DNA of 45,882 nt. Source: Clostridiales bacterium (GTDB taxonomy: Bacteria > Bacillota > Clostridia > Clostridiales > Caloramatoraceae). The notes beneath the pieces are model-generated. The model was not told the DNA's origin. It saw nothing but the letters and a program-made list of their open reading frames with translations, and made no database searches. Positions 1 through 30,816 of this stretch are shown in pieces. Numbering within the stretch: position 1 is the first letter of the stretch; each line of letters starts with the position of its first letter. The stretch spans positions 1 to 45,882 of the forward strand of contig JARDZI010000001.1 in the NCBI GenBank assembly GCA_029240935.1. The letters run 5' to 3'. A program made the translations under genes and the position numbers.

Positions 1-971
1 TTGTGAGGCTGAAAATGACCTTCAATATTCTTAAAGGAAGCAATCCTGTCTATAGCGTATTCTATTTCAATCCCTATGGAATGGACTGCTGCTATTGCAG
101 CAAGGGCATTGAGCACGTTAAACTCACCTAGGGCTGGAATAAAAGCATGGTAGTTTTTGCTATCGTATTGAAAAGTAAAATCCTCTCCAGCATCTGTGTT
201 ATTAACATTAAGAACTCTAAAATCCGAGTCTTTTGAAAATCCAAAATAAATTATTTCCCCTTTGTATTTATCAAGTTGGATTTTTTTTATATTCTTATCA
301 TCATTATTTAGAATAATTGTTCCATCATTATCAAGCCCCTCTAAAAATTCAGCCTTAGCTTTTATATAGCTCTCAGGAGTCCTGCAGCCTTCAATATGGT
401 CAATACCAATGTTGGTTATAATTCCTACCTGTGGTTTGAGAAACTTACAAGCCTTTAGAAGGCTCCCAGGGCAGTAGACAGGCATTTCAAATACTCCCGC
501 TTCAATTTTATTATCCATTCTTAATAAATATTTTAGGTTTGAACTTAAGGAGTTCTTGCTTCTATAAGTGGAATTAACCTTATATTTTTCTGATAAAATA
601 TGAGCAATCATTTCCTTTGTAGTTGTCTTTCCGTTTGTCCCAGTGACACCAATCACTGGAATTGAAAAAAATCCTCTGTAATATTCAACAAATTTCAAGA
701 AGGCTTCCTCAACATCTCTAACTTTAATTAGAGTTATGCTGTCATCCAGCTGGCCAGGCTTTGGGATAATGGAAGAAACTATAGCCGAAAATGGATACAT
801 TTGGTTCTTCTTCAACTTATCAAAACTATGATTATCCATGTTAAAAAACAAAGTCCCCCTCTTCATTACCCCTGGTACAGTTATTATATGACCTATTTTC
901 AAATTGTCAGGTCCCTGAAGCAACACGCCGCCTATGAGTTCAATAATGTCGATTAAGTTAATACTTTTCAT
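1..971 (-). CDS. Mur ligase family protein, MurF-like paralogue (N-terminal ~323 aa; C-terminus lies beyond the window start)
   Basis: Minus-strand open frame runs from ATG at 969-971 (GGGGGA RBS about 6 nt upstream) to the window edge. It is absent from the ORF track because it has no in-window stop. My translation: MKSINLIDIIELIGGVL..., P-loop VIGVTGTNGKTTTKEM, VGIITNIGIDHIEG, ILNNDD, GEFNVLNALAAIAAVHSIG. This is the ordered motif set of MurE/MurF-type ATP-dependent amide ligases. The usual MurF DSR motif was not seen. Confidence 0.75.
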   Translation of the reverse strand, partial: MKSINLIDIIELIGGVLLQGPDNLKIGHIITVPGVMKRGTLFFNMDNHSFDKLKKNQMYPFSAIVSSIIPKPGQLDDSITLIKVRDVEEAFLKFVEYYRGFFSIPVIGVTGTNGKTTTKEMIAHILSEKYKVNSTYRSKNSLSSNLKYLLRMDNKIEAGVFEMPVYCPGSLLKACKFLKPQVGIITNIGIDHIEGCRTPESYIKAKAEFLEGLDNDGTIILNNDDKNIKKIQLDKYKGEIIYFGFSKDSDFRVLNVNNTDAGEDFTFQYDSKNYHAFIPALGEFNVLNALAAIAAVHSIGIEIEYAIDRIASFKNIEGHFQPH

Positions 972-1071
972 TTTAATCCCCCTGACTTTTCTATCCTGAT
1001 TTATTATATGGTTGATTGGCAATAAATGATATAAAATGACATAAATTACTTTTGAAAAGACTTTATTTATC

Positions 1072-1099
1072 ACTTGTATAAAGTAAATAACATATAATA
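1072..1099 (+). promoter_or_regulatory. Possible mother-cell sigma-K-like promoter (AC-N17-CATATAATA) upstream of the first yheD-like gene
   Basis: AC at 1072-1073, a 17-nt spacer, and CATATAATA at 1091-1099 fit AC-N16/17-CATAnnnTA. Such matches are frequent by chance in AT-rich DNA. Confidence 0.2.
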
Positions 1100-1168
1100 T
1101 AGCGGGAAAGAAAGTAATAAAGTGTTCAAAGAATTTTTCAATGAGTATCATCAGGAGGTGAAGATACA

Positions 1169-2557
1169 TTGACAAACTGGGTTAAAATATTTTATGTTGA
1201 ATCTGAATTCAATAGAGTTTGCTTCCTAACCATAGAACAGTTGAGGCATTATGAATTAAGCAAACAAACAGAATATCTTTCATTTAGTGCAGGATCAAAA
1301 GAGGTATCTCTTCGGGTTGTAGTAACCAACAAAAAAACTAATGTTAATGAATTATATTTCTCTGAAGATGTAATGAATATGCTTTATATACCTCCAGAAA
1401 ATGTTTTGCAGCTTAAAAAAATTGATGATGATTACTTTGAGTTAGGTCCACTGATCGGAATTTTTGTAAGCTCTAAGAAAATTGCTGCCATGTGTGAAGG
1501 AAAAGAGGATGAAGTATACGAAATGCTTGCTGATACCTGCAAAGGGCTCCATGGATTATGCTGCTTTTTTTCAATAGGAGATATTGACTGGAAGAATAGA
1601 TTGGTGAAGGCTATGCTGTGGGGAAATAACAGATATTCCAGTCACATTATGCCTTTGCCAATGGTAATATATGACCGGTGTTTTGGAAGCTATGGGCGCA
1701 ACAAAGGAATGGAATTTAGGAAAAAACTTGGCAGTGATTATCGTGTAGTTAATTCTGTGCCAAAGCTTGGGAAATGGGAAACGATTAAAGCTCTGAGCAA
1801 AAACCCAGGATTAATTGAAGCAATACCTGAAACAATTTTATATCATTCCTATACTGACGTTGAAAGGGCACTCCAAAAAATAAAAAGCGTTTATGTTAAA
1901 CCTGATATGCTGTATAAGGGTAAGGGAATTTATAAGGTAAGTCGATGCAATGAGAAGATGTATAAGGTTGAGTCAAGGACAGAGACAGATAATGTAAAAG
2001 TTCATTTGCCAGATCTTAAAGGGTTGGATGAAATGTTAAGTTTATACTCTGCCCGTGGAGGGGGTTATTTAATCCAAAATGAAATTAATAAGGCCTCCTA
2101 CAGAGGATATCCATTTGACTTTAGGCTTTTGTACCAGAAAAACTGGCAGGGGCTCTGGAAACCAAGTGGGATATCTGTGCGAATGGGAGCTCCTGGAAGC
2201 ATTATTACAAGCCCTAGAAGCGGAGGAGCTGTTGAGGAACTGTCAAATGTTCTAAAAGAGGTATTTAATGAAGATGTGGATACTAAAAATGGTTTATATA
2301 AGAAAGTAATTGATATAGGAAGAGAGGCGGCAGAAGCTATAGATAGGGAATTCGGAGACTGTGTTGAGCTTGGCCTTGATATGACAATAGATGTAGAGGG
2401 GAAGGTATGGATTATAGAGATAAACGGGAAACCCTTAAAAGTAAGCATAAAATGGTTAAACAATCCACAGATGTTAGCTCGCTGCTATAAGCGTCCTGTT
2501 GAGTATGCGGTGTATCTCACCGGCTTTGAATCTTCGGATACAGAGCTAGGAGGGTAA
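1169..2557 (+). CDS. YheC/YheD-family ATP-grasp ligase, long form with ~95-aa N-terminal extra domain
   Basis: TTG start 8 nt after AGGAGGTG. Motifs PFDFRLLYQKN, SVRMGAPGSIITSPRSGG and GKVWIIEINGKP (E-x-N) are typical of the YheC/D ATP-grasp family (spore-coat-associated in Bacillus). Confidence 0.75.
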   Translation: MTNWVKIFYVESEFNRVCFLTIEQLRHYELSKQTEYLSFSAGSKEVSLRVVVTNKKTNVNELYFSEDVMNMLYIPPENVLQLKKIDDDYFELGPLIGIFVSSKKIAAMCEGKEDEVYEMLADTCKGLHGLCCFFSIGDIDWKNRLVKAMLWGNNRYSSHIMPLPMVIYDRCFGSYGRNKGMEFRKKLGSDYRVVNSVPKLGKWETIKALSKNPGLIEAIPETILYHSYTDVERALQKIKSVYVKPDMLYKGKGIYKVSRCNEKMYKVESRTETDNVKVHLPDLKGLDEMLSLYSARGGGYLIQNEINKASYRGYPFDFRLLYQKNWQGLWKPSGISVRMGAPGSIITSPRSGGAVEELSNVLKEVFNEDVDTKNGLYKKVIDIGREAAEAIDREFGDCVELGLDMTIDVEGKVWIIEINGKPLKVSIKWLNNPQMLARCYKRPVEYAVYLTGFESSDTELGG

Positions 2558-2561
2558 ATAA

Positions 2562-3677
2562 ATGAAAATAGGTGTGTATTTCAATGCAAATACTTTTAAA
2601 AGAGTAAGGTCGGGAGTAATCTTTAATGAATTAAAATATTTAGTTCAAGAAGGAATTCCTGAAGGAGTAGAGATTTTTGTTTTTTCTCCAAAGAATATAA
2701 GCTGGTGGAACCAAAAAATTAGAGGGTTAGGTTATGATGTTGACGAAAAAAAATGGAAACCAGAAATATTGGACTTTCCTGATGCAGTATATGACAGAGC
2801 AACTTTTCCTGAAAAGGAGAAGGAAATAGGTCATGAAGTAAGAAAACGGTTAAAAGAAGAATATAACATTATATTTCTGAACAGCAAGCACTACTTTGAC
2901 AAATGGGAAACCCACAAGAGCTTATCACTTTACCCAGAATTAAGAAGTTTCCTGCTTCCCACTGAAATATATAGCCATCCATTCATACTAGAAAAGTTTT
3001 TAAATAAATATAAAACTGTATATATTAAGGACTCTGCAGGAAGGCTAGGTCGTAATATTTTTAAGATTCAGAAGGAAGATAGTGGCCTGTATATTGGGTT
3101 TATTCAGAAGGAGGGAGAAATTTATCATAACAGGCTGGACCTTGAAAGCTTAAATGATAGAATTACTAATAATGAGCTTGAGGGAAAGACCCTTATAATC
3201 CAAAAAGGAGTGGAACTTGCAAGGTTCCAGGATAAACCCTTTGATATAAGGATTTTAGTTCAGAAAAACGGCAGTGGGAAATGGGAGGTAGTTGATAAAT
3301 CCATACGGGTTGCAGTTAGTAAGGATAGTGTTGTAACAAATATAAGTGCTGGAGGGGAAGCAAAAAAATTTAGAGAAGTGGTACCAGTGGTCTTTCCTAG
3401 ACTTGAAGATGATATTGAAAAGCAAATAAACACTATGTCTATTAGTATATGTAAATGCCTTGAAAAAAAATATGGTCCCCTTGGTGAATTGGGGATAGAT
3501 GCTGCATTGGATGATAAGGGAAAAGTATGGCTTTTAGAGGTAAATGGGAAGCCTGCAAAATCATGTGTTCATTATTCCAATGATCTTGAATTGATTCATA
3601 CTGCTTATAGCAATATTATTAAATATTTTAAATATCTAGCAACAGGCTCAACACAAAAAAATATGATTGATGAATAA
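2562..3677 (+). CDS. YheC/YheD-family ATP-grasp ligase, short form
   Basis: ATG 7 nt after GGAGGG, 4 nt after the upstream stop (operonic). Motifs PFDIRILVQKN, VTNISAGGE, GKVWLLEVNGKP. Paralogue of 1169-2557 without the N-terminal domain. Confidence 0.75.
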   Translation: MKIGVYFNANTFKRVRSGVIFNELKYLVQEGIPEGVEIFVFSPKNISWWNQKIRGLGYDVDEKKWKPEILDFPDAVYDRATFPEKEKEIGHEVRKRLKEEYNIIFLNSKHYFDKWETHKSLSLYPELRSFLLPTEIYSHPFILEKFLNKYKTVYIKDSAGRLGRNIFKIQKEDSGLYIGFIQKEGEIYHNRLDLESLNDRITNNELEGKTLIIQKGVELARFQDKPFDIRILVQKNGSGKWEVVDKSIRVAVSKDSVVTNISAGGEAKKFREVVPVVFPRLEDDIEKQINTMSISICKCLEKKYGPLGELGIDAALDDKGKVWLLEVNGKPAKSCVHYSNDLELIHTAYSNIIKYFKYLATGSTQKNMIDE

Positions 3678-3703
3678 ATTTTATTTTTTAGGTATGTCAT
3701 AAT

Positions 3704-3833
3704 ATGAAACTCCCCAAATTCAGCCTACTGTAGGGGCGAAAGGTGTTCACCCGATTTGGGCATAATCAATTAAAGGCTGATCGGGATTGTTGGTACGCCA
3801 CGGGCGAACACTGTTCGCTCCTACAAGTTTCAT
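3704..3833. repeat. Family-B structured repeat, copy 1 (~130 bp, ATGAAAC...GTTTCAT ends)
   Basis: About 92% identical by eye to 8950-9080. Contains two copies in inverted orientation of GTAGGGGCGAACAnTGTTCGCCC, plus complementary CCCCAAAT/ATTTGGG and TCAGCC/GGCTGA segments. Confidence 0.85.
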
Positions 3834-3901
3834 GATTTTTTGTGTTGTGCAACCGCGTGGTGGTTAATATGAAAGTCAATGCCAATTCAACGCCAAAGGC
3901 G

Positions 3902-3973
3902 TTGTCATCCTGAACATTGTGAAGGATCTTCTGTGATGCCTATTAAGCTCCTTCACAATGTTCAGGATGACAA
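3902..3973. repeat. Family-C palindrome (TTGTCATCCTGAACnnnGTGAAGGA arms), copy 1
   Basis: Near-perfect 25-nt arms TTGTCATCCTGAACATTGTGAAGGA / TCCTTCACAATGTTCAGGATGACAA around a loop of about 20 nt. It creates the false N-terminus MFRMT of ORF 3958. Confidence 0.85.
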
Positions 3974-4044
3974 TGTTGGATTCAGGAGGTTCAAACCATG
4001 CTAAAGGATCTGACTATCTCATATTAATGACGGGGGTATTGAAA

Positions 4045-5454
4045 ATGAAAAAAGAAATCCTCAAAATTGTTCCAAATTCTTTATCCACCTCAGATAATCA
4101 GCAAACTGTATATCTTTCTGCCTACTGGATGGAACATCTCAAGTTAAAGGAGAACTCCATGTATACACTGATATGTAGTATAAATAGTTTGCCTGTTAAA
4201 ATAAAAAAGATGCCGGTTAAGGATATCAGCAACAACATTCTATGGCTTAGTCCGGATATTTTCGAAAAAATTTTAATACCTGAGGGAATAACATTGGAAG
4301 TAATTTTTACAGAGAAAGTAATTAGAATTGGACCCATAATTGCCCTATTAACTGAGAATAAATTCCTGAAGGATTATTTAAATGGAACAAAGTGTGTTGA
4401 GAAATACGATCTATATGCAGATGCAGCTGAGAATGCTTCAGCACTTATTTATGTATTCAGCTTAAGGAATCTAAACTCCAAGGATAAATATATAAATGGA
4501 TATATACCTAAAAAAGATGAAAATAATAAATGGACATGGCACAAACGCCTCCTTCCAATGCCTGATGCAATTTGCAACAGAATGGCAACTGCAGCTACCA
4601 GCCCCGCATATGAAAGAATAAAGCTCATAGAAGAAATTGTACCGAATATTAAAATTGTCAACAGGGTTACAAAGATTAGTAAATGGACAATTGCTGAGAT
4701 CCTTCAAAGGGATTTGGTTGCTAAAAAGTATATACCTGAAACCCACCTGCTAAGAGGATCTGGGGATATAATTAATATGCTGGAGAAATATCCTGTAGCT
4801 TATTTGAAACCGGTAAGAAGAAGCCTGGGACTTGGCATTATAAAGATGGAGAAAAATACTGAAGGTAATTATACTGCTTATTATAATGTTAACCGATTTA
4901 ATCTTAAAATTAATGGTGATGTGAATTACATTCTAGCTGAGCTAAGTGAAATCATGGGAAAAAGGAGATACATTGTGCAGCAGGGTATTCCTGTGGCACT
5001 TTATAGAGGTGAAATCTTTGATTTAAGGGTCACTATACAGAAAAATGGTATTGGAGAATGGTCATTTTCTCGTTGGTCAGCAAGGGTTGCAGGCCCTGGT
5101 AATATTGTTTCTAATGTGGCAGCTGGAGGAAAAGGTGTTCCTGCTAAAAGAATTCTAAGAGAAATTTTTGGTGATAGGTTTCAGGGGATTAAAGATGAAG
5201 TTAAAAAGGCAGGGCTTATTATAGCAGAAGCCTTGGATAGAAGGCTGATTAGCATAGGGGACTTGGGTTTGGATATAGGAATCGATTTGAATGAGAATAT
5301 TTATTTATTTGAAGCAAATTTTAGAGCTATCCGACCAAGTAATATAAATTCAAAGGATAAAGAGGCCTGGAGAAGGACGTATCATACATCTATTTATTAC
5401 CTCAGATATTTATATGATGTTGAAATTGAGAAAAAATATAATCCGCAGCTTTAA
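4045..5454 (+). CDS. YheC/YheD-family ATP-grasp ligase, long form (third paralogue)
   Basis: I place the start at ATG 4045 (MKKEILKI..., GGGGG RBS 9 nt upstream) rather than the ORF-track 3958, whose first 29 codons read through a palindromic repeat. Motifs IFDLRVTIQKN, VSNVAAGGKG, IYLFEANFRA (E-x-N retained). Confidence 0.7.
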   Translation: MKKEILKIVPNSLSTSDNQQTVYLSAYWMEHLKLKENSMYTLICSINSLPVKIKKMPVKDISNNILWLSPDIFEKILIPEGITLEVIFTEKVIRIGPIIALLTENKFLKDYLNGTKCVEKYDLYADAAENASALIYVFSLRNLNSKDKYINGYIPKKDENNKWTWHKRLLPMPDAICNRMATAATSPAYERIKLIEEIVPNIKIVNRVTKISKWTIAEILQRDLVAKKYIPETHLLRGSGDIINMLEKYPVAYLKPVRRSLGLGIIKMEKNTEGNYTAYYNVNRFNLKINGDVNYILAELSEIMGKRRYIVQQGIPVALYRGEIFDLRVTIQKNGIGEWSFSRWSARVAGPGNIVSNVAAGGKGVPAKRILREIFGDRFQGIKDEVKKAGLIIAEALDRRLISIGDLGLDIGIDLNENIYLFEANFRAIRPSNINSKDKEAWRRTYHTSIYYLRYLYDVEIEKKYNPQL

Positions 5455-5465
5455 GCCTGCGGATT
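5440..5465. terminator. Bidirectional hairpin terminator between convergent ATP-grasp and aminomutase genes
   Basis: AATCCGCAG-CTTTAAG-CCTGCGGATT, a 9-bp stem flanked by A-rich and T-rich tracts. It overlaps the stop at 5452-5454. Confidence 0.6.
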
Positions 5466-5477
5466 ATATTTTTCTTT

Positions 5478-6737
5478 TTACAATATTGACTTAAGGTCTT
5501 TTGTGCTGTGGTTAGGATAATCAAAGCACCTGCCTTCCCAGGTACGAATTTTTATATAATCCTTGCCTCTTGATATTAAGTATTGAGGCAGAATCGGTGT
5601 TTTCCCATAACCATTTGGGGCGTTGATGACATATGTGGGAATTGCCATTCCTGAGGTATATCCTCTTAAATATTCCATAATCTCAATTCCATCATCTACT
5701 GAGGTATTAAAATGTGTAGTGCCCATAACATATTTTGCGTGAAATATATAATAGGGTCTTACCTTGCATTTAAGCAATTCCTGGTTTAATAGTCGCATTA
5801 TATATTTATCATTATTAATTCCGTTTAAAAGTACTGCCTGATTACCAAGAGGAATTCCTATATTTGCAAGTTTTTCACAGGCCTCTTTAGATTCCTTTGT
5901 TATTTCCAGAGGATGGTTAAACTGAGTGTTAATATAAAGAGGTGAATATTTCTTCAATACATTTAACAGTTCTTCTGTGATTCTTTGAGGCATATTTACC
6001 AGCACTCTTGTGCCGATTCTTATCAACTCCACTGATGGTATAGCATGAATCTCATGAAGCAGCCAGTCGATTTCTGAATCTGGCAGAGTTAGAGGATCTC
6101 CTCCTGTAATTAGCACATCACGTATTTCGGGATTGTTTTTAATGTATTCAATTGATTCAACAAGAACCGACCTGGTTTGGTGTAAATCTGTTGTGCCGAT
6201 GTTTCTCCTTCTCTGACAGTGCCTGCAGTATGAAGAACAAACATTAGTTACGTTGATAATAAGTCTATCAGGATATCTCCTGGTTATTGCACCTGCTGGA
6301 TTAGTGTATTCTTCTGACATGGGGTCCATGCAGCCATATTGGCTCATTTCTGCTAGAACAGGGACTGACTGCAGCTTTACAGGGTTAAATTTGTCATCAT
6401 CAATAAGAGAGAGATAATAGGGAGAAATAGCCCATCTATATCTTTGCTGCACTTTTTTTATGTTCTCAATCTCAAAATCCTTCAGGTCAATGATTTTTGA
6501 TAAAAGTTCTACATCCCATATCTTGTTTTTAATCTGCCATTTCCAATCATTCCAATCTTTTTCCCTAGCATTAAGGATTGAAAGTATTTTTTCTTTTTTT
6601 TGTTGTATTTTCTCTTGTTGAAGATTGGACAGACCTCTTGGTATTGAATCTTTAATAACTAAATACTCTTCAATCTTCTTTTTTAACTCATCAGCCCTTT
6701 CTATTGCTATATTTCTAGGATTTTCCTCCTGTGTCAT
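5478..6737 (-). CDS. eam: KamA-family radical-SAM/PLP aminomutase with glutamate 2,3-aminomutase signature
   Basis: CSSYCRHCQRRR (CxxxCxxC at C167/C171/C174) and PLP-lysine context NGYGKTP (K379). By alignment from memory to C. subterminale lysine 2,3-aminomutase, D293 corresponds to K335 (YIFHAK, codon 5733-5735) and D330 to N372 (VINAP, codon 5622-5624). This is the Lys/Asn pair reported for glutamate 2,3-aminomutase. Confidence 0.7.
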   Translation of the reverse strand: MTQEENPRNIAIERADELKKKIEEYLVIKDSIPRGLSNLQQEKIQQKKEKILSILNAREKDWNDWKWQIKNKIWDVELLSKIIDLKDFEIENIKKVQQRYRWAISPYYLSLIDDDKFNPVKLQSVPVLAEMSQYGCMDPMSEEYTNPAGAITRRYPDRLIINVTNVCSSYCRHCQRRRNIGTTDLHQTRSVLVESIEYIKNNPEIRDVLITGGDPLTLPDSEIDWLLHEIHAIPSVELIRIGTRVLVNMPQRITEELLNVLKKYSPLYINTQFNHPLEITKESKEACEKLANIGIPLGNQAVLLNGINNDKYIMRLLNQELLKCKVRPYYIFHAKYVMGTTHFNTSVDDGIEIMEYLRGYTSGMAIPTYVINAPNGYGKTPILPQYLISRGKDYIKIRTWEGRCFDYPNHSTKDLKSIL

Positions 6738-7048
6738 AATAGCTCCTCCTTTATGAATAGAGTTCGATTTTCTAAATAAATGAATACAAGTAATTCTATT
6801 GCCATAGACTATTTTTCACTATATATTATGAAATTGTGTCATATTATGAAACTATGCCTGTAAATTAAAATTTAGATTCTATTCAATATGCTATTATTAT
6901 TCATTTTTACAATAAATCTCTAATATTTTGCCATTACTTCATTTTTTCTGTTCCCTAATTGCATAATCCAGCATATTTTATATTAAAGCTAAGAATAATG
7001 TAGAATATAATTTCTATTATAATTTTTTTTGTTAAGGAGGATGCATCT

Positions 7049-7828
7049 ATGGAATCAAATTTTGGAAACAAACCAATTGAAAAGCCTAACTTCCCAAGTC
7101 GCAGCTGTGAATGTAAAGGTGAGGTAAAAGAATCACAAACATTGTGCGAATGTGAAAATTATCCAAATCCCTATCCAGGGTATGCAAAAATACCAATTGT
7201 TCTAGGTGAGTTTACAGTACAAATTGATGTGGAATCAAAAATAAAACTTGATGAACCTGCAATTGAAATCAAACGAATAAGAAAAAATGTTTTTTTAACT
7301 CAATGTAGGCTTATTCCCGGAACAAACAAATTATTCCTTGAAGGCTATGTTAGAAAAAATATTGAATATGCTACAAAGGATGGAAGTAAAAAAGATGTTA
7401 TTTGTGGAGATATCAAACATACAACTGTTAAGGTTCCATTTAAATGTGTTACAAAGGTATGTTTCAACAATTATCCAAAACTATTCTCATCTCCTGTTCC
7501 AAATGAAGTAGAATACTTCGACAAGAAAGCAATGGGGAAAGACATGAAAGAACAGGATATTATTAGTACAGAGTTTTTCAATGAAAAAGTTTTTTGCGAA
7601 TTGGAAAAAGCACATATTTATGAAGCAGATATTGTAGAAGATTATGATAAAATCGAATGTCATCCTAATGAATTTTTATTCTCCTACTTTATTGAAAAGG
7701 AAGTAATTTATCTAACAATCAAATTATTACAGAAGCAACAAGCATATCATTTCCCTAACGATAAATCATGCGAACCGGAGCTTTCTTCAGATGAAAGAAA
7801 AAATATGGTGAAAGTAAAATATGAATAG
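7049..7828 (+). CDS. Cys-rich hypothetical protein, SPOCS/DUF3794-like beta-strand core; putative spore coat/exosporium-associated
   Basis: Strong RBS AAGGAGG. Core EPAIEIKRIRKNVFLTQCRLIPGTNKLFLEGYVRKNIEYA resembles the repeat pattern of DUF3794 (SipL/SpoVID-type) domains. N-terminus is CECKG...CECENYPNPYPGY. Paralogue of 7990-8907. Confidence 0.4.
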   Translation: MESNFGNKPIEKPNFPSRSCECKGEVKESQTLCECENYPNPYPGYAKIPIVLGEFTVQIDVESKIKLDEPAIEIKRIRKNVFLTQCRLIPGTNKLFLEGYVRKNIEYATKDGSKKDVICGDIKHTTVKVPFKCVTKVCFNNYPKLFSSPVPNEVEYFDKKAMGKDMKEQDIISTEFFNEKVFCELEKAHIYEADIVEDYDKIECHPNEFLFSYFIEKEVIYLTIKLLQKQQAYHFPNDKSCEPELSSDERKNMVKVKYE

Positions 7829-7839
7829 GTTTCCCTTTT

Positions 7840-7868
7840 GCCGGTGTCTATTGCACCGGCTATTTTTA
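7840..7868 (+). terminator. Intrinsic terminator after the first coat-like gene
   Basis: GCCGGTG-TCTATTG-CACCGGC followed by TATTTTTAT. Confidence 0.7.
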
Positions 7869-7989
7869 TATTACTTTGCTTTTGTTGCAAGAGGTGATGT
7901 TTCTGCATATTATATTTTATATACACTTTTAATTTTATGGAGAATTATTATAGATATTGTATTATTAATAGTAATAGGAGGTTAATAGT

Positions 7990-8907
7990 TTGAGCAAACA
8001 TAGTCATTCCAATGAATGCCATAGCACCGAAGATACTGATAGGAAGCTTGTAGTATTAGATGATGAATTGTTTTCTAATGACAACAATGAAAAATTGAGT
8101 AAAAAGAATATAAAAGAATCCAAAGGCTTAATATCCTCCCAAGTCATTCAAGAATGCCACAGTTCGTTAATAGAGCCTGATGGAAGCAATGGATTTTTTG
8201 TTGCCAATATCCCAGTTGTAATATCTGAATTCGAAGTGGAAATTAATTGTGAGATAACAATAGAGCTTGACTATCCAGGCATTGAAATAAAGAGGGTTAA
8301 AAAAAATGTATTTATTACCCAATGTAGATTGCTTCCTAAACCAAAAAAGTTATTCCTTAAGGGGTTTGTAAGAAAAAACATTGAGTATGCTGCTATAAAC
8401 CCCCATGATTCCAAGGGTGGAAATAGTATAAGACATATGACATTTGAGGTTCCATTTGTTTGTACTACTGAGATTGATTATTTCATTCCCCCAATAATAA
8501 ATAAAAGTTGCAGCAAGGACATAGAAATTTATAAATCTGAGTCCTGTGAATCCAATATCTATGAAAAAAGCAATGAAAGTTATGAATACTTTAATGAAAA
8601 AATTTATTGTAAGACTGTAATGGCAAGAATCGCAGATATTGATATTATTGAGAAAAGTGATAAAGAAAGTTATAAAGAAAGTTATAAAGAAAGTTATAAA
8701 GAAAGTTATAAAGAAAGTGAAACCATGGATTATAAAGTATTTAAATCTCTGGATGAGAAAATAACCCTAATACTGAGGTTAAAGCTGCTACAGAATCAGG
8801 ATGTAAACATATATCCTAAATTAAAAAAACCTTGTAAAAAAAAGAACTCTGAAAGTTATTCAGAGGGACGGGAAGTTGTTTCTTCTTCACCTAATGGGGA
8901 AAATTAA
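7990..8907 (+). CDS. Paralogous coat-like protein with (KESY)n tandem repeat
   Basis: TTG start 8 nt after AGGAGG. Core YPGIEIKRVKKNVFITQCRLLPKPKKLFLKGFVRKNIEYA is about 50% identical by eye to the 7049 product. It also shares EYFNEK and LKLLQ motifs and contains DKESYKESYKESYKESYKESE. Confidence 0.4.
   Translation: MSKHSHSNECHSTEDTDRKLVVLDDELFSNDNNEKLSKKNIKESKGLISSQVIQECHSSLIEPDGSNGFFVANIPVVISEFEVEINCEITIELDYPGIEIKRVKKNVFITQCRLLPKPKKLFLKGFVRKNIEYAAINPHDSKGGNSIRHMTFEVPFVCTTEIDYFIPPIINKSCSKDIEIYKSESCESNIYEKSNESYEYFNEKIYCKTVMARIADIDIIEKSDKESYKESYKESYKESYKESETMDYKVFKSLDEKITLILRLKLLQNQDVNIYPKLKKPCKKKNSESYSEGREVVSSSPNGEN
8662..8718 (+). repeat. Perfect in-frame 12-nt tandem repeat (AAAGAAAGTTAT x4 plus a partial fifth) encoding (KESY)n
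   Basis: Units at 8662-8673, 8674-8685, 8686-8697 and 8698-8709 are identical. A fifth copy diverges after 9 nt. Confidence 0.95.
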
Positions 8908-8949
8908 CCGTAGAAAAATCTATGGTTAATTTGTTATTCTTCTGTTAAT

Positions 8950-9080
8950 ATGAAACTCCCCAAATTCAGCCTACTTGTAGGGGCGAACAGTGTTCGCCCG
9001 ATTTGGGCATAGTTAATTAAAGGCTGATCCGGATTGTTGGTACACCACGGGCGAACACTGTTCGCCCCTACAAGTTTCAT
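8950..9080. repeat. Family-B structured repeat, copy 2
   Basis: Same element as 3704-3833 in the same orientation. Lies between the second coat-like gene and the MCP gene, directly abutting a family-A half unit. Confidence 0.85.
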
Positions 9081-9090
9081 TCTTGTAGTT

Positions 9091-9118
9091 AATAAGTAAT
9101 AAGTCATATGGCTGCCAT
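9091..9118. repeat. Family-A unit, single arm (AATAAGTAATAAGTCATATGGCTGCCA)
   Basis: Exact reverse complement of 10958-10984. Same arm as the right halves of the hairpins at 27047-27065, 29247-29265 and 30853-30880. Confidence 0.85.
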
Positions 9119-9121
9119 TCT

Positions 9122-9949
9122 TTATAGCTCATCTGCCAGCTTTCCTAGGAGCCTTGCGGTAGAATTTAGCTGTTCAATGGATGAAGCTATTTCTTGCAAA
9201 GCTTTTGATTGCTCGTTTGATATACCATCAGCATCAACTACTTTATCGTTAATTTTTTTTATTGATGTTGAAATATTTTTGATAACATTTTCTATTTTGC
9301 TAATTGATTCGTTCGAAGAATTAGATAGCTTTCTAATTTCCTGTGCAACAACATTAAAACCTCTTCCAGCTTCCCCTGCTCTTGCTGCTTCAATAGATGC
9401 ATTTAAGCCTAAAAGGTTTGTTTGAGAGGATACTCCTTTTATAAAATTTACAATATCATCTGTGTCATTAGCCATATTATTAGCAGTATTTGCTTCACCA
9501 AGTATTTCATTATTCCTACGGGCTAATTCTTGAACCCCAGAGGAAATCTGATTTATTACTGTTTCTATGTGTGACAATGCTGTTATTAACTTATCTGTAA
9601 TATTGGTTACAGCGTTCTTTTTTGAAAGACTTTTGCCAATAGCTATTGAGCCCACAACTGTTTGTCCATCTTTTATTGGAATCATATATGATTTAAAGGC
9701 TACCCCCATAAAGTCCTCAGGAAGAACCTTTACTTGAATATCCCCTAGTTCCATTGCCTCTTTTACAAATTCTCCTGCTGGGGAGCCTACTTGCCTTTTC
9801 CCATTTATTTCTTTACTACCCTGATAATATAATACTTTTTCCTTATCAGTTAGCATTATTTCAATGTCATTATCAAAAAAAGTATCAATGTAAGGAATTG
9901 CATTACAAACGCTTTTTAATATATCATTTCCAAAATCCTTTTCCACCAT
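9122..9949 (-). CDS. Soluble methyl-accepting chemotaxis (MCP) signalling-domain protein, short form
   Basis: Hairpin-tip motif [36 protein letters not shown]. No predicted TM segment. About 120-aa N-terminal sensor-like domain. RBS GGGAGGA. Confidence 0.75.
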
Positions 9950-10035
9950 TTATTCCTCCCTTTATATGATCTTTTTCTATATTAATTTATATTATACAAT
10001 AAAGATTCGAGAAAATAAACTTATAACTAAGGAAC

Positions 10036-10053
10036 AAGTCATATGGCTGCCAT
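10036..10053. repeat. Family-A unit, truncated single arm (AAGTCATATGGCTGCCAT)
   Basis: 18-nt identity to 9101-9118 in the same orientation. Lies between the MCP and GntR genes. Confidence 0.75.
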
Positions 10054-10126
10054 TAACAGTTACTAAAAAATAGTGTATAATTATCATACTTAGGTTTTAT
10101 AAAGTTTTCTATATTTGGGGGTACAT

Positions 10127-10819
10127 ATGTTTATACCGATTAAGAATACAAAAGTTTATGAGCAGGTTATTGAGCAAATAAAAAGAATGATAATGGATGG
10201 TACTTTGAAAAAGGGTGATAAACTGCCTACTGAAAGAGATCTTGCAGAGCAACTTCAGGTAAGCAGAGCATCAGTTAGGGAAGCACTTACAGCACTTGAT
10301 GTAATCGGATTGGTGGAAAGTAGACATGGTGCTGGAAACTATATAAGAGAGAACTTTGAAAACAGTCTTTTTGAACCTATGTCCATGATGTTTTTACTTG
10401 AGAAGGGAACTCCATTGGAAATACTTGAATTGAGACAGGTGCTTGAGGTGGAAGCGGCAGTTTTGGCAGCAGCAAGAATTAATGATGATGAGGTCCAGAC
10501 TCTTGGAGAGGTAGTCCATGAAATGAAAACCTGCACTGATGAGGACAGGAGTGTAGTCCTTGATAAGGAGTTTCATTTTTCTATTGCTAAAGCCTCCAAA
10601 AACCTGCTTATTATAAATATACTTCAAGTAATTTCACAGCTTATTGATGAATTCATAAAGGATTCTAGAAAGAAGATACTGATGGTTAAGGATAATAGGG
10701 TCAAGTTAACAAAGCAGCATGAAAGGCTTTATAATGCTCTTAAAAACAGAGACCGGGATGAAGCTCGAAAAGCCATGGCTGCTCATTTCAAGCTTGTAGA
10801 AGAATATATAAATGAATAG
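10127..10819 (+). CDS. GntR/FadR-family transcriptional regulator (HTH + FCD domain), lctA/LldR-like
   Basis: Motif KGDKLPTERDLAEQLQVSRASVREAL is a GntR winged HTH, followed by an all-helical FCD-type C-terminus. Start moved to ATG 10127 (GGGGG 6 nt upstream) instead of TTG 10115. It sits directly upstream of the etfBA-LDH genes. Confidence 0.8.
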   Translation: MFIPIKNTKVYEQVIEQIKRMIMDGTLKKGDKLPTERDLAEQLQVSRASVREALTALDVIGLVESRHGAGNYIRENFENSLFEPMSMMFLLEKGTPLEILELRQVLEVEAAVLAAARINDDEVQTLGEVVHEMKTCTDEDRSVVLDKEFHFSIAKASKNLLIINILQVISQLIDEFIKDSRKKILMVKDNRVKLTKQHERLYNALKNRDRDEARKAMAAHFKLVEEYINE

Positions 10820-10837
10820 GAATAATAATAATAATTA

Positions 10838-10864
10838 GGATGGAGAATTGACTCCATCTTTTTT
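10838..10864 (+). terminator. Intrinsic terminator after the GntR-family gene
   Basis: GGATGGAG-AATTGA-CTCCATC followed by TTTTTT. Confidence 0.7.
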
Positions 10865-10957
10865 ATTGACAATAAAATAACTATTGTAGAAACTTTCAAG
10901 CAATTATGATACTATGATGTTGAAAATAAATTGGTCATGCCACCTTACCAAAAATAT

Positions 10958-10984
10958 TGGCAGCCATATGACTTATTACTTATT
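10958..10984. repeat. Family-A unit, single arm in inverse orientation (TGGCAGCCATATGACTTATTACTTATT)
   Basis: Perfect 27-nt reverse complement of 9091-9117. Lies between the GntR terminator and etfB. Confidence 0.85.
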
Positions 10985-11022
10985 TAACATAAGTCTAAAT
11001 ATAAATTCTGGAGGGAAGAAAT

Positions 11023-11811
11023 ATGGATATATTGGTATGTATTAAACAGGTACCTGGAACAACAAAGGTTGAGGTTGATCCGATTACGGGAGTATTGAAA
11101 AGGGACGGAGTAGATTCTAAAATGAATCCCTATGACCTTTATGCACTTGAGACTGCTCTCAGGATAAATGAGAAGGTGGGAGGAGCAATAAAGGTAATAA
11201 GCATGGGACCTCCACAGGCTAAGGAGGTTATAAAAGAAGCCTTTACCATGGGTGCCCAGGAAGGAATGCTTTTAACCGACAGAAAGTTTGGAGGCGCTGA
11301 CGTGCTGGCCACTTCCTATACACTCTCACAGGGAGTAAAAAGGATGGGAAATGTGGATCTTATAATATGTGGAAAGCAAACTACTGATGGAGATACTGCA
11401 CAGGTTGGACCAGAAATGGCCGAATACCTTGGAATTCCCCATATAGCCAATGTGAGGAAGATTGTTGAGCTTAGATCTGATTCAATAGTGGTTGAAATGG
11501 ATATGCCCAACACTATTGAAGTTGCAGAGGTTAAGTTTCCTTGTCTTATAACTGTTGAAAAGGATATTTTCCAGCCAAGGCTGCCTTCCTATAGAAGAAA
11601 GCTTGCAACCATGGATAAGGAAATAAAAGTAATAGGCTTAAAGGACCTTGAAGATCAGAATGAAAAAAGATATGGCCTTAATGGTTCACCAACTCAGGTT
11701 GAAAGGATATTCCCACCTGCAGTAAACACAGATAGAGAGATGTGGAATGGAACCTCTGAGGATTTGAGTATAAAGATTGCTGGCAAGCTTAAAGTCTTAA
11801 AGTTTATATAA
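11023..11811 (+). CDS. etfB: Electron transfer flavoprotein beta subunit
   Basis: [13 protein letters not shown]... is the canonical EtfB N-terminus. Also [28 protein letters not shown]. Confidence 0.9.
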
Positions 11812-11823
11812 GGAGGGGTTGTC

Positions 11824-13014
11824 ATGGCTAAACTGGTAGTAAATCAGGATAAAATAACTAATATAGATGAACTAATTAAAATCTGTCCCTTTGGAGCTAT
11901 GGAGAACAAAGGGGGCAAGCTTGAGATAAATGCAGGCTGTAAAATGTGCAAGCTCTGTGTGAGAAAGGGTCCTCAAGGAGCTGTAGAATATGTTGAAGAT
12001 AATGTAGAAGAAATAGACAAGAGCCTTTGGAGAGGTGTTGCTGTATATGTTGATCATGTTGAAGGTGAAATACATCCAGTAACACTTGAACTTATAGGAA
12101 AGGCAAGGGAGCTTGCTGAAAAGGTAAACCAACCTGTATACTGTGTATTTATGGGATATGCTATAAAGGACAAGGCAAAAGAACTTCTTCACTATGGCGT
12201 GGATGAGGTATTTGTGTATGATTATGAGGAGCTGAAGGATTTTAGAATAGAGCCATACACAGCAGTATTTGAGGATTTTATTAACAGGTCAAAGCCAACT
12301 GCAGTCCTTGTTGGAGCTACAACAATTGGAAGATCCCTTGCACCAAGGGTTGCCGCAAGGTTTAGAACAGGTCTTACTGCAGATTGTACAATACTTGATA
12401 TGAAGGAAAATACGGATTTGATTCAGATAAGACCTGCCTTTGGGGGAAACATTATGGCTCAGATTATTAATCCGAACCATAGACCTCAGATGGCAACAGT
12501 AAGGTACAAGGTTATGTCAGCACCAAAGAGAAATGCAGAGGCTTCGGGCAGTATATCATCCTGTGAAATAAGTAAGGAAAAGCTTTTCTCAAACATTAAT
12601 GTTCTAAGTGTAGTTCCAAAGGAAAAGGAAAAGGGAATATCCGATGCAGAAGTTATAGTAGCAGTAGGAAGAGGATTGAAGTCTGAAAAAGATATGGCAA
12701 TGATTAAGGAACTGGCAGGGCTATTAGATGCAGAAATTGCTACAACAAGGCCTCTTATTGAAGGCGGCTGGGTTGATGCTAAAAGGCAGGTTGGTCTTAG
12801 TGGAAGAACAGTAAGACCCAAGCTTATCATAACCTGTGGAATTTCGGGAGCAGTACAGTTTACTGCAGGTATGAACAATTCTGATTATATTTTTGCAATA
12901 AACATTGATGAAAAGGCTCCAATATTCAAGGTTGCACACTATGGAGTTGTTGGGGACATATACGAAATAATACCTCAATTAATAGAGAAAATAAAGTTGG
13001 CAAGGGAGGCTTAG
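11824..13014 (+). CDS. etfA: Electron transfer flavoprotein alpha subunit with N-terminal [4Fe-4S] ferredoxin domain
   Basis: The CPFGAM...CKMCKLC cluster motif is followed by an EtfA core (LVGATTIGRSLAPRVAARF, AVGRGL, ITCGISGAVQFTAGM). This architecture matches LctC of bifurcating LDH/Etf complexes. Confidence 0.88.
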   Translation: MAKLVVNQDKITNIDELIKICPFGAMENKGGKLEINAGCKMCKLCVRKGPQGAVEYVEDNVEEIDKSLWRGVAVYVDHVEGEIHPVTLELIGKARELAEKVNQPVYCVFMGYAIKDKAKELLHYGVDEVFVYDYEELKDFRIEPYTAVFEDFINRSKPTAVLVGATTIGRSLAPRVAARFRTGLTADCTILDMKENTDLIQIRPAFGGNIMAQIINPNHRPQMATVRYKVMSAPKRNAEASGSISSCEISKEKLFSNINVLSVVPKEKEKGISDAEVIVAVGRGLKSEKDMAMIKELAGLLDAEIATTRPLIEGGWVDAKRQVGLSGRTVRPKLIITCGISGAVQFTAGMNNSDYIFAINIDEKAPIFKVAHYGVVGDIYEIIPQLIEKIKLAREA

Positions 13015-13017
13015 TTA

Positions 13018-14418
13018 ATGGGCTATAAAAAGGTTGATAAAAAGGATATTGAAAATATACTATCTCTGGTTGCAGATAAGGAAAGAGTTTTCCATGGGGA
13101 AAGCATCAACGAGGATTACAGCCATGATGAGCTTGGAACTGTAAAGCAAATGCCTGATATTGTAGTTCAGGTCCTAAGTACAGAAGAGGTTTCAGCTGTA
13201 ATGAAATATGCTTATGAAAATAATATTCCCCTAACTCCAAGGGGTTCAGGTACAGGCCTTGTTGGAGCAGCAGTTCCAATCTACGGTGGAATAATTATTG
13301 ATTTAAGCAAAATGAACAAAATACTTGAGCTTGATGAGGAAAACCTTACTTTAACAGTAGAGCCTGGGGTACTTCTTATGGAAATATCTAAGTTTGTAGA
13401 AGCTCAGGAGCTTTTTTACCCACCAGATCCAGGTGAAAAGACTGCCACAATAGCAGGAAACATTAACACAAATGCAGGTGGTATGAGAGCAGTTAAATAT
13501 GGTGTTACAAGGGACTATGTAAGAGGACTGGAGCTTGTACTGCCAAACGGTGAAATTATGGAGGTTGGAGGAAAGGTAGTAAAAAACAGCTCTGGCTACA
13601 GCTTGAAGGATTTAATCGTTGGCTCAGAGGGAACACTGGCAATTGTTACAAAGGCTATACTGAGGCTTCTCCCACTGCCAAAGAAGGCAATAAGCCTGCT
13701 TATACCATTCCCTAACCTTGATGCAGCAATTGAAACTGTTCCCAAAATAATTAAATCAAAGTCAGTGCCAACAGCAATTGAATTCATGCAGAGGGCTGCA
13801 ATAGTTGCTGCTGAGGAATTTCTGGGAAAGAAATTCCCTGACAGCTCCGCAGATGCCTATCTTCTTCTAACCTTTGACGGAAACAACAGGGAAGAGGTAG
13901 AAAGAAACTATGAAAACGTTGCTAATATTTGTCTTGAAGCAGGAGCCCTTGATGTGTTAATTTCAGATACAGAGGAAAGGCAGGAATCCATATGGACTGC
14001 TAGGGGAGCCTTCCTGGAAGCTATAAAGGCTTCAACAACTGAAATGGAAGAGGTTGATGTTGTTGTTCCAAGAAATACAGTAGCTGAATTTGTTAAATTC
14101 ACACATGAACTTGAGGACAAGTTTGACATAAGAATAAGAAGCTTTGGACATGCTGGTGATGGAAACCTTCATATATATATTCTAAGGGACCAGCTGGATG
14201 AAACAACCTGGCACAGGAAGCTAAATGATACAATGGAATCTATGTACCAAAGGTCCAGGGAACTAAATGGACAGGTTTCAGGAGAACATGGAATAGGCTT
14301 TGCCAAGAAGCCCTATCTAAAAACTTCCCTCTCCAAGGAAACCATGGGAATTATGCAGGGTATAAAGCTAGTATTTGATCCTAAGAATATATTAAACCCA
14401 GGAAAGGTCTGCCAATAG
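13018..14418 (+). CDS. lctD: FAD-linked oxidase (GlcD family), Etf-dependent lactate dehydrogenase-like
   Basis: FAD-binding PCMH motifs [14 protein letters not shown] and [18 protein letters not shown]-terminal GEHGIG, and NILNPGK at the end. It begins 4 nt after etfA. Confidence 0.8.
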
Positions 14419-17715: not shown

Positions 17716-17787
17716 TTGTCATCCTGAATGTGGTGAAGGATCTTTTTCATTGTGCCTATAAGATCCTTCATTGCGTTCAGGATGACA
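17716..17787. repeat. Family-C palindrome, copy 2
   Basis: TTGTCATCCTGAATGTGGTGAAGGATCT ... AGATCCTTCATTGCGTTCAGGATGACA. The loop (TGTGCCTATAA) is similar to copy 1. Lies between livJ and livH. Confidence 0.85.
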
Positions 17788-17851
17788 TAGTAGTTCAGGA
17801 AACATGGCAATATCAAGACAACTCTAACACTCTATTTAAGGAGAGATGTAT

Positions 17852-21151: not shown

Positions 21152-22609
21152 TTACCTTTTTATCTTATAAGCATCCTCAAAATAAACACTATCTATCACA
21201 GTCCCCAAAACCTTATCATAAACTACAAGATTAAAGCCGTGATATCTATTTGAATAATCCTTACCATTGAAACTCAACCCGGGCATATTATTATTTGTTG
21301 ATGAGGTTGTAGCATCTAATGTTATGTTATTTTCGAAGGTAAGGGTTTTATTGAATTTGGATGCTCCATATACCTCAGATTCCACATTGTTGCTATTTAT
21401 AACAGCCATGTAATGATTCTCTGTAGTTTTTTCTTCAAGCTTTAAGCCAAATCGCCTTAGAGATTCTTGAAGGTTTGGATCTTTATTAAGGCTGCTATAG
21501 TTGTCTGAAAGGGCAATTAGTATGTAATTTTCATTCTGGGCTAGAGAAATATAATCCTCAACATACTTTGCTGCCCTTAATGCCGTTAATGCTTCCTCCT
21601 GTACATAATAATTATAATCATTATTCCACTGAGAGTATTTATTATCATTTCGATGATCCCTAAGGGTATAGTTTTCCACAAGGTATTTTCCTAAAAGATT
21701 ACTTACCTTTTCTGCTCCCCATACATTCATATGGTCTGCATTGGACATATCAGCTTTAAAGTCAAAGCCCAGTTCATCATATTTTTTATTGTATTCAATA
21801 AAAGGTATGTTATTTTCCTTTGCAATCTCTGATACAGTATTGAACATTTTTGTACTATCCTTATACCAGCTTGGCATAACATCAGTAATTGTAGGATCAT
21901 AGGGCACATTAATAAATACTAGCTTAAAGTCTTCCTGTTTTGATAACTGGATTATTTTCATCAGGTATTCCTTTGATTCTGGGGGGAGTTCTGCTTTTTC
22001 TGTGATATTAGGATTGCTTAGATTATCCTTGCCATACATATCCTGGGTAGCGGCAAACCCCTTTGTGTAATAATTTTTATCATAATCGTAATAGAAATCT
22101 TCCTGGTTCAATTCCTTCCAGCGAGTATGGAACCTTAAAAATGGGAAGACATAGGTTATCCAATAGGATTTTGGAGTAGTGTTTATTACAGCTTCAATCT
22201 TGTTTGTAGAGGTCTTCATGCTATCAAGCACATATCTAATGTAACCGCTTTTACCATAGGTTTCGTTGTACCCAAGGTAGTATAAATCAACAACAACAAT
22301 AGGGTCAGTATGCTTTTTCAGCACTTCCTTCAAAAGATAATATGTAACATTTATAGGCTGCCCGCCGGTTCCATAATTAAAGCTTGTTATTCCATACTTA
22401 TTCCAAAGCACATTAGGATTTATTCCACTGTGCATGTGGCTTGAACCTAAAAGCACAACGTCAAAGGGAGCCTCTGTAGCCCTATAAAATCCTTGATAAA
22501 GCTTTCTGCGATGCTCAAGCTTTAGGACAAATATTGGATTTAGTAGAGAAAGGATTAATACTACTATTAAAATTAAAATTGAGCTCTTTATTATTGCTTT
22601 TTTAAGCAT
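21152..22609 (-). CDS. Membrane-anchored SGNH/DltD-like protein, partner of the MBOAT acyltransferase
   Basis: N-terminal TM helix, then VVLLGSSHMHSG (GDS(L)-like block I). It lies 12 nt downstream of the MBOAT gene on the same strand. The ~130-aa C-terminal extension has no motif I recognise. Confidence 0.45.
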   Translation of the reverse strand: MLKKAIIKSSILILIVVLILSLLNPIFVLKLEHRRKLYQGFYRATEAPFDVVLLGSSHMHSGINPNVLWNKYGITSFNYGTGGQPINVTYYLLKEVLKKHTDPIVVVDLYYLGYNETYGKSGYIRYVLDSMKTSTNKIEAVINTTPKSYWITYVFPFLRFHTRWKELNQEDFYYDYDKNYYTKGFAATQDMYGKDNLSNPNITEKAELPPESKEYLMKIIQLSKQEDFKLVFINVPYDPTITDVMPSWYKDSTKMFNTVSEIAKENNIPFIEYNKKYDELGFDFKADMSNADHMNVWGAEKVSNLLGKYLVENYTLRDHRNDNKYSQWNNDYNYYVQEEALTALRAAKYVEDYISLAQNENYILIALSDNYSSLNKDPNLQESLRRFGLKLEEKTTENHYMAVINSNNVESEVYGASKFNKTLTFENNITLDATTSSTNNNMPGLSFNGKDYSNRYHGFNLVVYDKVLGTVIDSVYFEDAYKIKR

Positions 22610-22620
22610 TAGTATTCCCC

Positions 22621-27065: not shown

Positions 27066-27074
27066 ATTCAAACT

Positions 27075-30788: not shown

Positions 30789-30816
30789 AAAATTTTGTAG
30801 TAAAGAAATATAAAAT

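Follow-up and report, generated by a model that had tools for sequence, protein, structure and literature searches.

Linkage of a glutamate 2,3-aminomutase gene to several YheC/D ATP-grasp ligase genes in Clostridiaceae suggests a candidate pathway to a beta-glutamate peptide

Introduction

In peptidoglycan synthesis the ATP-grasp enzyme Ddl makes a peptide unit that a MurF-type ligase attaches via an acyl-phosphate, and cyanophycin synthetase (CphA1) uses ATP-grasp and Mur-like chemistry to build a non-ribosomal polyamide. PgsB/CapB and the RimK/TTL glutamylases carry out ATP-dependent glutamate ligation into polymers or onto protein C-termini, and in the EpmB/EpmA (elongation factor P, EF-P) and AblA/AblB (N-acetyl-beta-lysine) systems an aminomutase supplies a beta-amino acid to a transferase or ligase that is encoded nearby. 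Here we describe a locus at the start of a 45,882-nucleotide (nt) stretch of contig JARDZI010000001.1 from a Clostridiales bacterium (assembly GCA_029240935.1), called the window in what follows, in which a gene for glutamate 2,3-aminomutase (eam) lies beside three genes for ATP-grasp ligases of the YheC/D family and one for a MurF-like Mur ligase. The enzymes come from known families and their chemistry is of a known kind (Ddl/MurF, cyanophycin synthetase, PgsB, RimK/TTL, pseudomurein). The question is what this combination of enzymes might make.

A literature search found no reaction assigned to YheC/D and no study pairing YheC/D with an aminomutase, the 2009 family-defining study being outside its reach; the sequence-only reading, an earlier annotation made by a model from the letters and open reading frames (ORFs) of the window, had also taken the family to be without an assigned reaction. 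The family was reportedly defined in the 2009 amidoligase paper of Iyer and Aravind, and the eam-YheC/D neighbourhood may already have been noticed computationally, for example in that paper. YheC and YheD of Bacillus subtilis, which share the Pfam family PF14398 with the window ligases, are expressed in the mother cell as members of the sigma-E/SpoIIID regulon, and YheD is found in the spore coat's basement layer (PMC517825, PMC7725329). Methanogen pseudomurein clusters encode an ATP-grasp enzyme alongside several Mur-type ligases, which together make a peptide with unusual linkages (PMC11915815).

We propose, with a probability of about 0.5, that eam and several YheC/D ligases form a ribosome-independent pathway to a beta-glutamate peptide or oligo-amide, which would act late in the mother cell and deliver its product to the spore envelope. 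The conserved unit is eam together with non-redundant YheC/D ligases; the MurF-like ligase is optional, as is an APC-type amino-acid permease.

Results

The locus comprises the following features.

1-971, minus strand: MurF-like Mur-ligase paralogue (PF08245, E 2e-44); N-terminal 323 codons, 3' end lost at the contig edge
1072-1099, plus strand: sigma-K-type promoter-like site AC-N17-CATATAATA, a consensus match only, ~70 nt 5' of ligase 1
1169-2557, plus strand: YheC/D ATP-grasp ligase 1, 462 aa (PF14398, E 3e-62)
2562-3677, plus strand: YheC/D ATP-grasp ligase 2, 371 aa, core enzyme only (PF14398, E 1e-73)
4045-5454, plus strand: YheC/D ATP-grasp ligase 3, 469 aa if counted from 4045, its probable start, in an open frame from 3958 (PF14398, E 9e-66)
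5432-5473, no strand assigned: 17-bp stem-loop with A-run and T-run, a likely bidirectional terminator between the convergent ligase 3 and eam
5478-6737, minus strand: glutamate 2,3-aminomutase Eam (radical SAM / PLP), convergent with the ligase operon (TIGR04368, 672.8 bits)

An ORF map and profile searches placed every gene of the sequence-only reading where that reading had put it, and the family and motif matches within 1-8907 are far beyond chance. The window is AT-rich (32-40% GC), and over its first 4 kb it has the same sequence as a short Joint Genome Institute metagenome contig; because that contig begins at the same base, position 1 is probably a contig end.

Eam scored 672.8 bits against the glutamate equivalog model TIGR04368 (cut-off 650) and fell below the cut-offs of the lysine (AblA; 448.9 vs 525.4) and arginine (354.3 vs 600) models. 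The radical S-adenosylmethionine (SAM) motif reads CSSYCRHC, and C167, C171 and C174 are invariant in 18 relatives together with K379, which aligns with the pyridoxal phosphate (PLP) lysine Lys337 of lysine 2,3-aminomutase 2a5h. In the same alignment Asp293 and Asp330 of 2a5h, which are reported to bind the side-chain (epsilon-)amine of lysine (Ruzicka and Frey 2007), are replaced by Lys335 and Asn372. By these sequence measures the product of 5478-6737 is a glutamate 2,3-aminomutase, the specificity that the sequence-only reading had assigned to it.

The three consecutive YheC/D genes match PF14398 at 210.5, 248.1 and 222.2 bits (ligases 1, 2 and 3; cut-off 26.8), each over ~255 of 255 profile positions, and their products carry the motif pairs already quoted in that reading (FDFRLLYQKN/IEIN, FDIRILVQKN/LEVN and FDLRVTIQKN/FEAN). 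The ATP-grasp residues K202, K244, Q303, R319, D404 and N419 are invariant in all three paralogues. The Pfam match begins at residue 194 in ligase 1, at residue 102 in ligase 2 and at residue 231 in ligase 3 when read from 3958, which bears out the extra N-terminal domain that had been noted on two of the ligases. Ligase 1 uses a TTG start codon with AGGAGG just 5' of it and is separated from ligase 2 by 4 nt. Ligase 3 probably starts at 4045, because its orthologue in the close relative L006 is 469 aa long and a GGGGG ribosome-binding site is present; from this start its extra N-terminal domain is ~100 aa long.

The AlphaFold2 model of ligase 1 (predicted local distance difference test, pLDDT, 87.5; predicted template-modelling score, pTM, 0.87) has a predicted ATP-grasp core for which Foldseek returned LysX/ArgX with the carrier LysW, Ddl, GshB, RimK and TTL (E 1e-12 to 1e-9). 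Residues 1-95 are modelled as a two-fold pseudo-symmetric beta-barrel, in which strand-strand-helix-strand-strand occurs twice; modelled alone, the barrel reached a pLDDT of 71.5, and on this model it may be a docking domain. A Pfam search of the N-terminal domains gave no match, no solved structure was close in sequence to the YheC/D ligases, and an exact-sequence look-up of ligase 1 returned no record.

The enlarged gap between ligases 2 and 3 holds a long hairpin at 3906-3969, a perfect 20-bp inverted repeat with a related copy at 17716-17800; part of the ligase-3 ORF, namely its 5' extension, overlaps this hairpin. A search of Rfam returned nothing at gathering score, and microRNA matches on this hairpin were rejected as generic hairpin matches. 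A GC-richer element of ~120-140 nt occurs at 3716-3856 and 8962-9080 in direct orientation and at 92% identity, with the terminal inverted repeats ATGAAACT...CGGGCGAACA / TGTTCGCCCG...AGTTTCAT. Its two copies bracket ligase 3, eam and two CsxC genes described below and are not found in L006; from its sequence the element looks like a miniature mobile element.

Is the linkage of eam and YheC/D genes conserved? An Eam-anchored scan with one genome per species gave 319 relatives, and the best 80 of the 319 were analysed with 10-kb flanks (loci are referred to by L numbers). YheC/D genes lay within 10 kb of eam in nine of these 80 closest loci (7 of the 57 with at least 5 kb on both sides), and all nine were among the closest Eam relatives of the 80. 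In five of the nine, eam and its nearest ligase gene stand tail-to-tail, with 67-110 nt between that gene and the eam stop; convergence with wider gaps is seen in L012 and L023, and L015 is co-directional. Among the recurring eam neighbours of the 80 loci there was no functionally suggestive family besides YheC/D.

A genome scan with a ligase-2-only query found nothing, so the Eam alignment was used for a second scan, and a metagenome scan with the ligase-2 alignment gave six loci only. Ligase-2 orthologues, which are 42-88% identical, lie beside eam in 7 of the 7 cases with enough flank (the window, L006, L005, L003/L004, L013, L090 and L091), and 12 further ligase-2 matches are on a contig of the same size as an Eam match, which suggests co-location there as well. 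In all, eam occurs with several YheC/D genes in ~13 Clostridiaceae loci of several genera, despite rearrangements. Direct adjacency is found in the window, L003 (Clostridium cellulovorans), L005/L009 (Fervidicella), L006, L007, L008, L012, L013, L015, L016, L019, L023 (C. hominis), L090 and L091, and the genera represented are Clostridium, Fervidicella and, by a record so labelled, Acetivibrio alkalicellulosi (flagged UNVERIFIED_CONTAM). L006, with orthologues 79-88% identical, has the gene order of the window, running from a permease and a divergent Mur gene through the three ligase genes to eam (convergent) and the pair of CsxC genes. In Fervidicella metallireducens a Mur ligase and four YheC/D genes are accompanied by a convergent eam and an amidase; C. 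cellulovorans lacks the Mur ligase, and its convergent eam lies with four YheC/D genes, of which one encodes 864 aa. An APC amino-acid permease lies in or beside five eam clusters.

The number of YheC/D genes per eam cluster is 1-6, the value of 1 occurring only on a 2.6-kb contig, and is 3-6 wherever the 10-kb flank could be read. A neighbour-joining tree of all ligase ORFs resolved distinct orthogroups, named types 1, 2, 3, A and B; type 1 is found in 9 of 11 eam clusters, type 2 in five and type 3 in four, and a second cluster layout consists mainly of types A and B. At least three different YheC/D paralogues are present in each cluster with 10-kb flanks, and because distinct orthogroups are retained across clusters the ligase steps are likely to be non-redundant. 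Four clusters of the second layout also encode a protein family with no Pfam match (L008 12715-13296, L012 17820-19085, L016 17674-18528 and L023 5470-6090).

The Mur-ligase fragment at 1-971 has a PF08245 match and the P-loop GTNGKT, and its L006 orthologue (460 aa, 84% identical) has the Mur_ligase_C domain PF02875, which together place it in the Mur ligase superfamily. As its description as MurF-like implied, its best NCBIfam model is murF (TIGR01143; 167.6 bits vs a cut-off of 288.6), and the alignment of E. coli MurF to it begins at residue 3. Full-length orthologues scored 234.9 (L006), 250.1 (Fervidicella) and 236.7 bits (P. megaterium) against this model, all below 288.6. In L006 the Mur gene has an amino-acid permease and a beta-eliminating lyase as its neighbours, in Fervidicella (L005) a U32 peptidase, and there was no cell-wall operon around any Mur orthologue sampled, the window's own upstream side lying beyond the contig end. 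Since the orthologues score below the murF cut-off and no cell-wall operon surrounds them, the window gene is best read as a dedicated paralogue. A housekeeping MurF, which the sequence-only reading had itself raised as the outcome that would speak against it, was rejected on the same scores and the lack of a murE/mraY-type operon context. A second outcome that would have spoken against that reading, no conserved co-localisation in related genomes, was not borne out for eam and YheC/D either.

The Mur paralogue family numbers 527 proteins at E < 1e-30, with members 40-52% identical in Priestia megaterium, Bacillus species, Natronincola and Peptococcaceae. YheC/D genes lie near the paralogue in 6 of 6 sampled contexts (L087, L088, L089, L096, L097 and L098), so the MurF-like paralogue and YheC/D would form a general module for which eam is one of several suppliers or partners. 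In L087 and L097 the Mur and YheC/D genes cluster with those for phosphoenolpyruvate mutase, phosphonopyruvate decarboxylase and an aminotransferase (aminoethylphosphonate genes, a further source of an unusual amine), and the ligase module therefore seems to be paired there with aminoethylphosphonate synthesis. The clusters of these loci (L087 6383-15328, Priestia megaterium; L097 5589-15398) include an NTP-transferase/aminotransferase fusion and a NUDIX gene, and in L087 the YheC/D domain sits within an 873-aa COOH-NH2-ligase/YheC/D fusion. Near the Mur paralogue of L088 lie further YheC/D genes or fragments, six or seven in number, and L096 has a glycosyltransferase with Mur paralogue and YheC/D. 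In L089 (9001-14538) and L098 (7001-12615) the Mur paralogue is followed by a 103-aa A_ENA gene, two YheC/D genes and an LPG_synthase_C-type transferase. A_ENA is a family of spore-appendage (alpha endospore appendage) subunits (PMC13111695), and this gene set may serve to modify a spore-surface fibre.

When might the ligase operon be transcribed? The site at 1072-1099 has the pattern AC-N17-CATATAATA, which fits the sigma-K consensus, and it is preserved in L006 despite four spacer substitutions. Similar sigma-K-like sites lie 5' of the ligase operon starts of L013 (two), L016 and L090. Seven AC-N16-17-CATANNNTA sites were counted in the 22.3 kb 5' of cluster genes, the expectation from those loci being 1.65; this enrichment 5' of ligase operons is suggestive and would point to late sporulation. 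A sigma-E pattern gave one match (L090), about as many as by chance, with no enrichment.

Two further genes follow eam.

7049-7828, plus strand: CsxC-family spore-envelope protein 1 (NF045794, 231.8 bits); a neighbour whose membership of the system is uncertain
7990-8907, plus strand: CsxC-family spore-envelope protein 2 (NF045794, 174.3 bits); a neighbour whose membership of the system is uncertain

Both products, described before as coat-like, pass the CsxC-family model NF045794 (231.8 and 174.3 bits; cut-off 135). In C. sporogenes, the crystalline parasporal layer has CsxC as its main protein (bioRxiv 10.64898/2026.09.03.749163; PMC4942563). Each CsxC gene has its own terminator, that of protein 1 at 7840-7860. 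The last residues of protein 1 are ...KYE in the window as in L006, and protein 2 has a (KESY)x5 tandem insert at 8620-8680 that its L006 orthologue lacks.

The remaining window (lactate/Etf genes, a branched-chain amino-acid ABC transporter, an MBOAT gene, regulators) added no sporulation context. The minus-strand gene at 9122-9949 encodes a 275-aa protein in which Pfam shows a methyl-accepting chemotaxis signalling domain only and no sensor domain. At 10115-14418 a GntR-type regulator, EtfB-/EtfA-like genes (translations read) and an FAD-linked oxidase resemble a lactate-utilisation operon and are unrelated to the ligases. At 21152-24105 (minus strand) an MBOAT (DltB/AlgI-like) membrane acyltransferase lies beside a 485-aa protein with no Pfam match, and together they may acylate a surface polymer. 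An intergenic repeat of REP-like type (core AAGTAATAAGTCATATGGCTGCCAT) has five direct and two inverted copies in the window, at 9078-9126, 10013-10061, 10952-10993, 27027-27075, 29227-29275 and 30815-30887.

Discussion

The pathway that we propose is supported by the enzyme identities and their intact catalytic residues by the match of the ATP-grasp model to amide-forming ligases and by the conserved gene linkage. Eam would convert L-glutamate to beta-glutamate (3-aminoglutarate), and the three ATP-grasp enzymes, catalytically intact by sequence, would each turn a carboxylate into an acyl-phosphate for one addition step. The amino components added would include beta-glutamate, and the outcome would be a short defined peptide or oligo-amide, not a long homopolymer. 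The N-terminal beta-barrel of ligases 1 and 3 could dock on the growing acceptor, perhaps a macromolecule, and the MurF-like enzyme, where present, would join the ATP-grasp product to a further carboxylate acceptor, much as MurF adds the D-Ala-D-Ala made by Ddl. Expression would probably be a late event of the sporulating mother cell, with the spore envelope as the probable destination of the product; hints of sporulation come from the passes of the CsxC-family model, the spore-coat precedent of YheC/D and the sigma-K-like sites. A more specific form of the proposal, that the beta-glutamate peptide sits covalently on a spore-envelope component, either protein or cortex peptidoglycan, is tentative.

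A number of observations weigh against this proposal. Most eam genes are not beside YheC/D: 71 of the 80 closest loci have no such neighbour (Alkaliphilus, Tepidibacter, Paraclostridium etc.), eam there lies among the housekeeping genes trmD, rimM, rnhB, ylqF, comM and dprA, and other uses of beta-glutamate clearly exist. Phylogenetically the linked loci are near one another, with Eam at least 70% identical, so that shared descent accounts for some of the conserved linkage. In the window eam is on the opposite strand, behind the shared terminator 5432-5473, and is therefore not co-transcribed with the ligases. The sequence-only reading had taken the Mur gene, three ATP-grasp genes and eam together; eam with multiple YheC/D genes held up as a conserved arrangement, and the five-gene set did not, since the number of YheC/D genes varies from one to six and only ~5 of the 13 eam clusters have a Mur ligase, namely those of the window, L006, Fervidicella, L012 and L090. 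The Mur and YheC/D module also occurs without eam in the sampled contexts. The coat-like pair, from which the sequence-only reading drew its idea of deposition on the spore, is not a conserved part of the cluster: CsxC-eam linkage is limited to the window and its close relative L006. Without L006 and one intragenic match, the sigma-K-like sites come down to five independent intergenic sites (Poisson P ~0.03); L003, L008, L012 and L023 have no strict match, and the match in L005 is intragenic. The fold matches of the N-terminal barrel are weak (B3/LlaJI-N/BfiI-C pseudobarrel; best E 8e-3, template-modelling score 0.5-0.66), and an amino-acid permease in or beside five clusters would be equally in keeping with a small soluble product and with precursor uptake.

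Might the ligases instead modify proteins, adding tails of glutamate or beta-glutamate to the C-termini or side chains of spore-envelope proteins (CsxC-family or appendage proteins) in the manner of TTL, RimK or LysX? The fold matches do include LysX/ArgX with LysW, RimK and TTL, and the ligases show weak sequence matches to TTL; however, the small-molecule enzymes Ddl and GshB match the ligase model equally well. The extra N-terminal barrel could dock proteins and YheD is in the spore coat (PMC7725329), whereas the MurF-like partner and the amino-acid permease fit small-molecule chemistry better. Candidate substrates can be named, namely the adjoining CsxC proteins, the first of which ends in ...KYE in the window and L006, and the small A_ENA spore-fibre protein encoded between the Mur paralogue and YheC/D in L089 and L098, but no candidate substrate gene is conserved across the eam clusters and only two close relatives show linkage to CsxC. 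On balance, we regard protein tailing as unlikely.

A soluble di- to tetrapeptide of beta-glutamate, serving as compatible solute, signal or antimetabolite with no link to the spore, is quite unlikely. YheC/D would then act like L-amino-acid ligases and the permease, an APC type inside or beside five clusters, would move precursor or product. ATP-grasp ligases build phosphonopeptides, and the Mur and YheC/D module occurs with phosphonate genes. Beta-glutamate has been reviewed as an osmolyte (PMC1224877), and the many unlinked eam genes in halophilic or alkaliphilic Clostridia (Alkaliphilus, Haloimpatiens, Natronincola, Sporosalibacterium) fit such a role. Against this, most of the paralogues carry an extra docking domain, three to six different ligases are many for an osmolyte, sigma-K-like sites are enriched 5' of the ligase operons, and the family's only experimental data concern the spore coat (PMC7725329).

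That the genes merely lie side by side through inheritance from a common Clostridiaceae ancestor, with the ligases using ordinary amino acids and Eam having a separate role, would suit the solitary eam genes among housekeeping genes, the opposite strands, the mutual relatedness of the linked loci and the YheC/D and Mur modules without eam, but is improbable given that the linkage survives reshuffling (paralogue sets, permease and Mur insertions, the co-directional L015), spans several genera (Clostridium, Fervidicella and the flagged Acetivibrio alkalicellulosi record) and is found for every ligase-2 orthologue that could be checked.

The physical link between eam and YheC/D provides a concrete substrate hypothesis for the spore-coat YheC/D proteins, namely beta-glutamate, and C. 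cellulovorans, Fervidicella metallireducens and C. hominis are tractable organisms that bear the cluster. A MurF-like paralogue that travels with YheC/D and with varied suppliers and neighbours suggests a modular amide-ligation system for Firmicute cell or spore surfaces. Should a spore-attached beta-glutamate peptide prove true, it would be a new beta-amino-acid modification or polymer of bacterial spores, and would give the widespread YheC/D family and its MurF-like partner their first biochemical reaction. Beta-glutamate built into spores would also bear on spore resistance, on surface chemistry and on the origin of beta-glutamate in the gut metabolome.

How, then, does this locus compare with the known systems? 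MurF is the Mur ligase that the window enzyme resembles most, but unlike the Ddl and MurF pair the window enzyme scores below the murF cut-off, lies outside a cell-wall operon, has YheC/D partners in place of Ddl and is linked to eam. The B. subtilis yheC/yheD pair is not known to show linkage with eam or any Mur ligase. CphA1 has its ATP-grasp and Mur-like domains fused in one protein, whereas the genes are separate in the window, and the several ATP-grasp paralogues would point to a defined sequence and not to an Asp-Arg polymer; a cyanophycin synthetase was rejected on the separate genes and on the TIGR02068 score (76.9 bits vs a cut-off of 850). A PgsBCA/CapBCA system was rejected as well, since there are no PgsC or PgsA ORFs or domains in 1-12000 and the best Mur models are MurF and MurE; the window Mur ligase is MurF-like and not CapB-like, and the amino acid would be beta-glutamate. 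The pseudomurein clusters differ in being archaeal, in having MraY-like genes and in lacking an aminomutase, and the pMur models score 58-115 bits (cut-offs 550-610). Finally, the locus departs from EpmB/EpmA and AblA/AblB in that the amino acid here would be glutamate and not lysine, and in that the aminomutase is accompanied by ATP-grasp and Mur ligases and not by a lysyl-tRNA-synthetase paralogue or an acetyltransferase.

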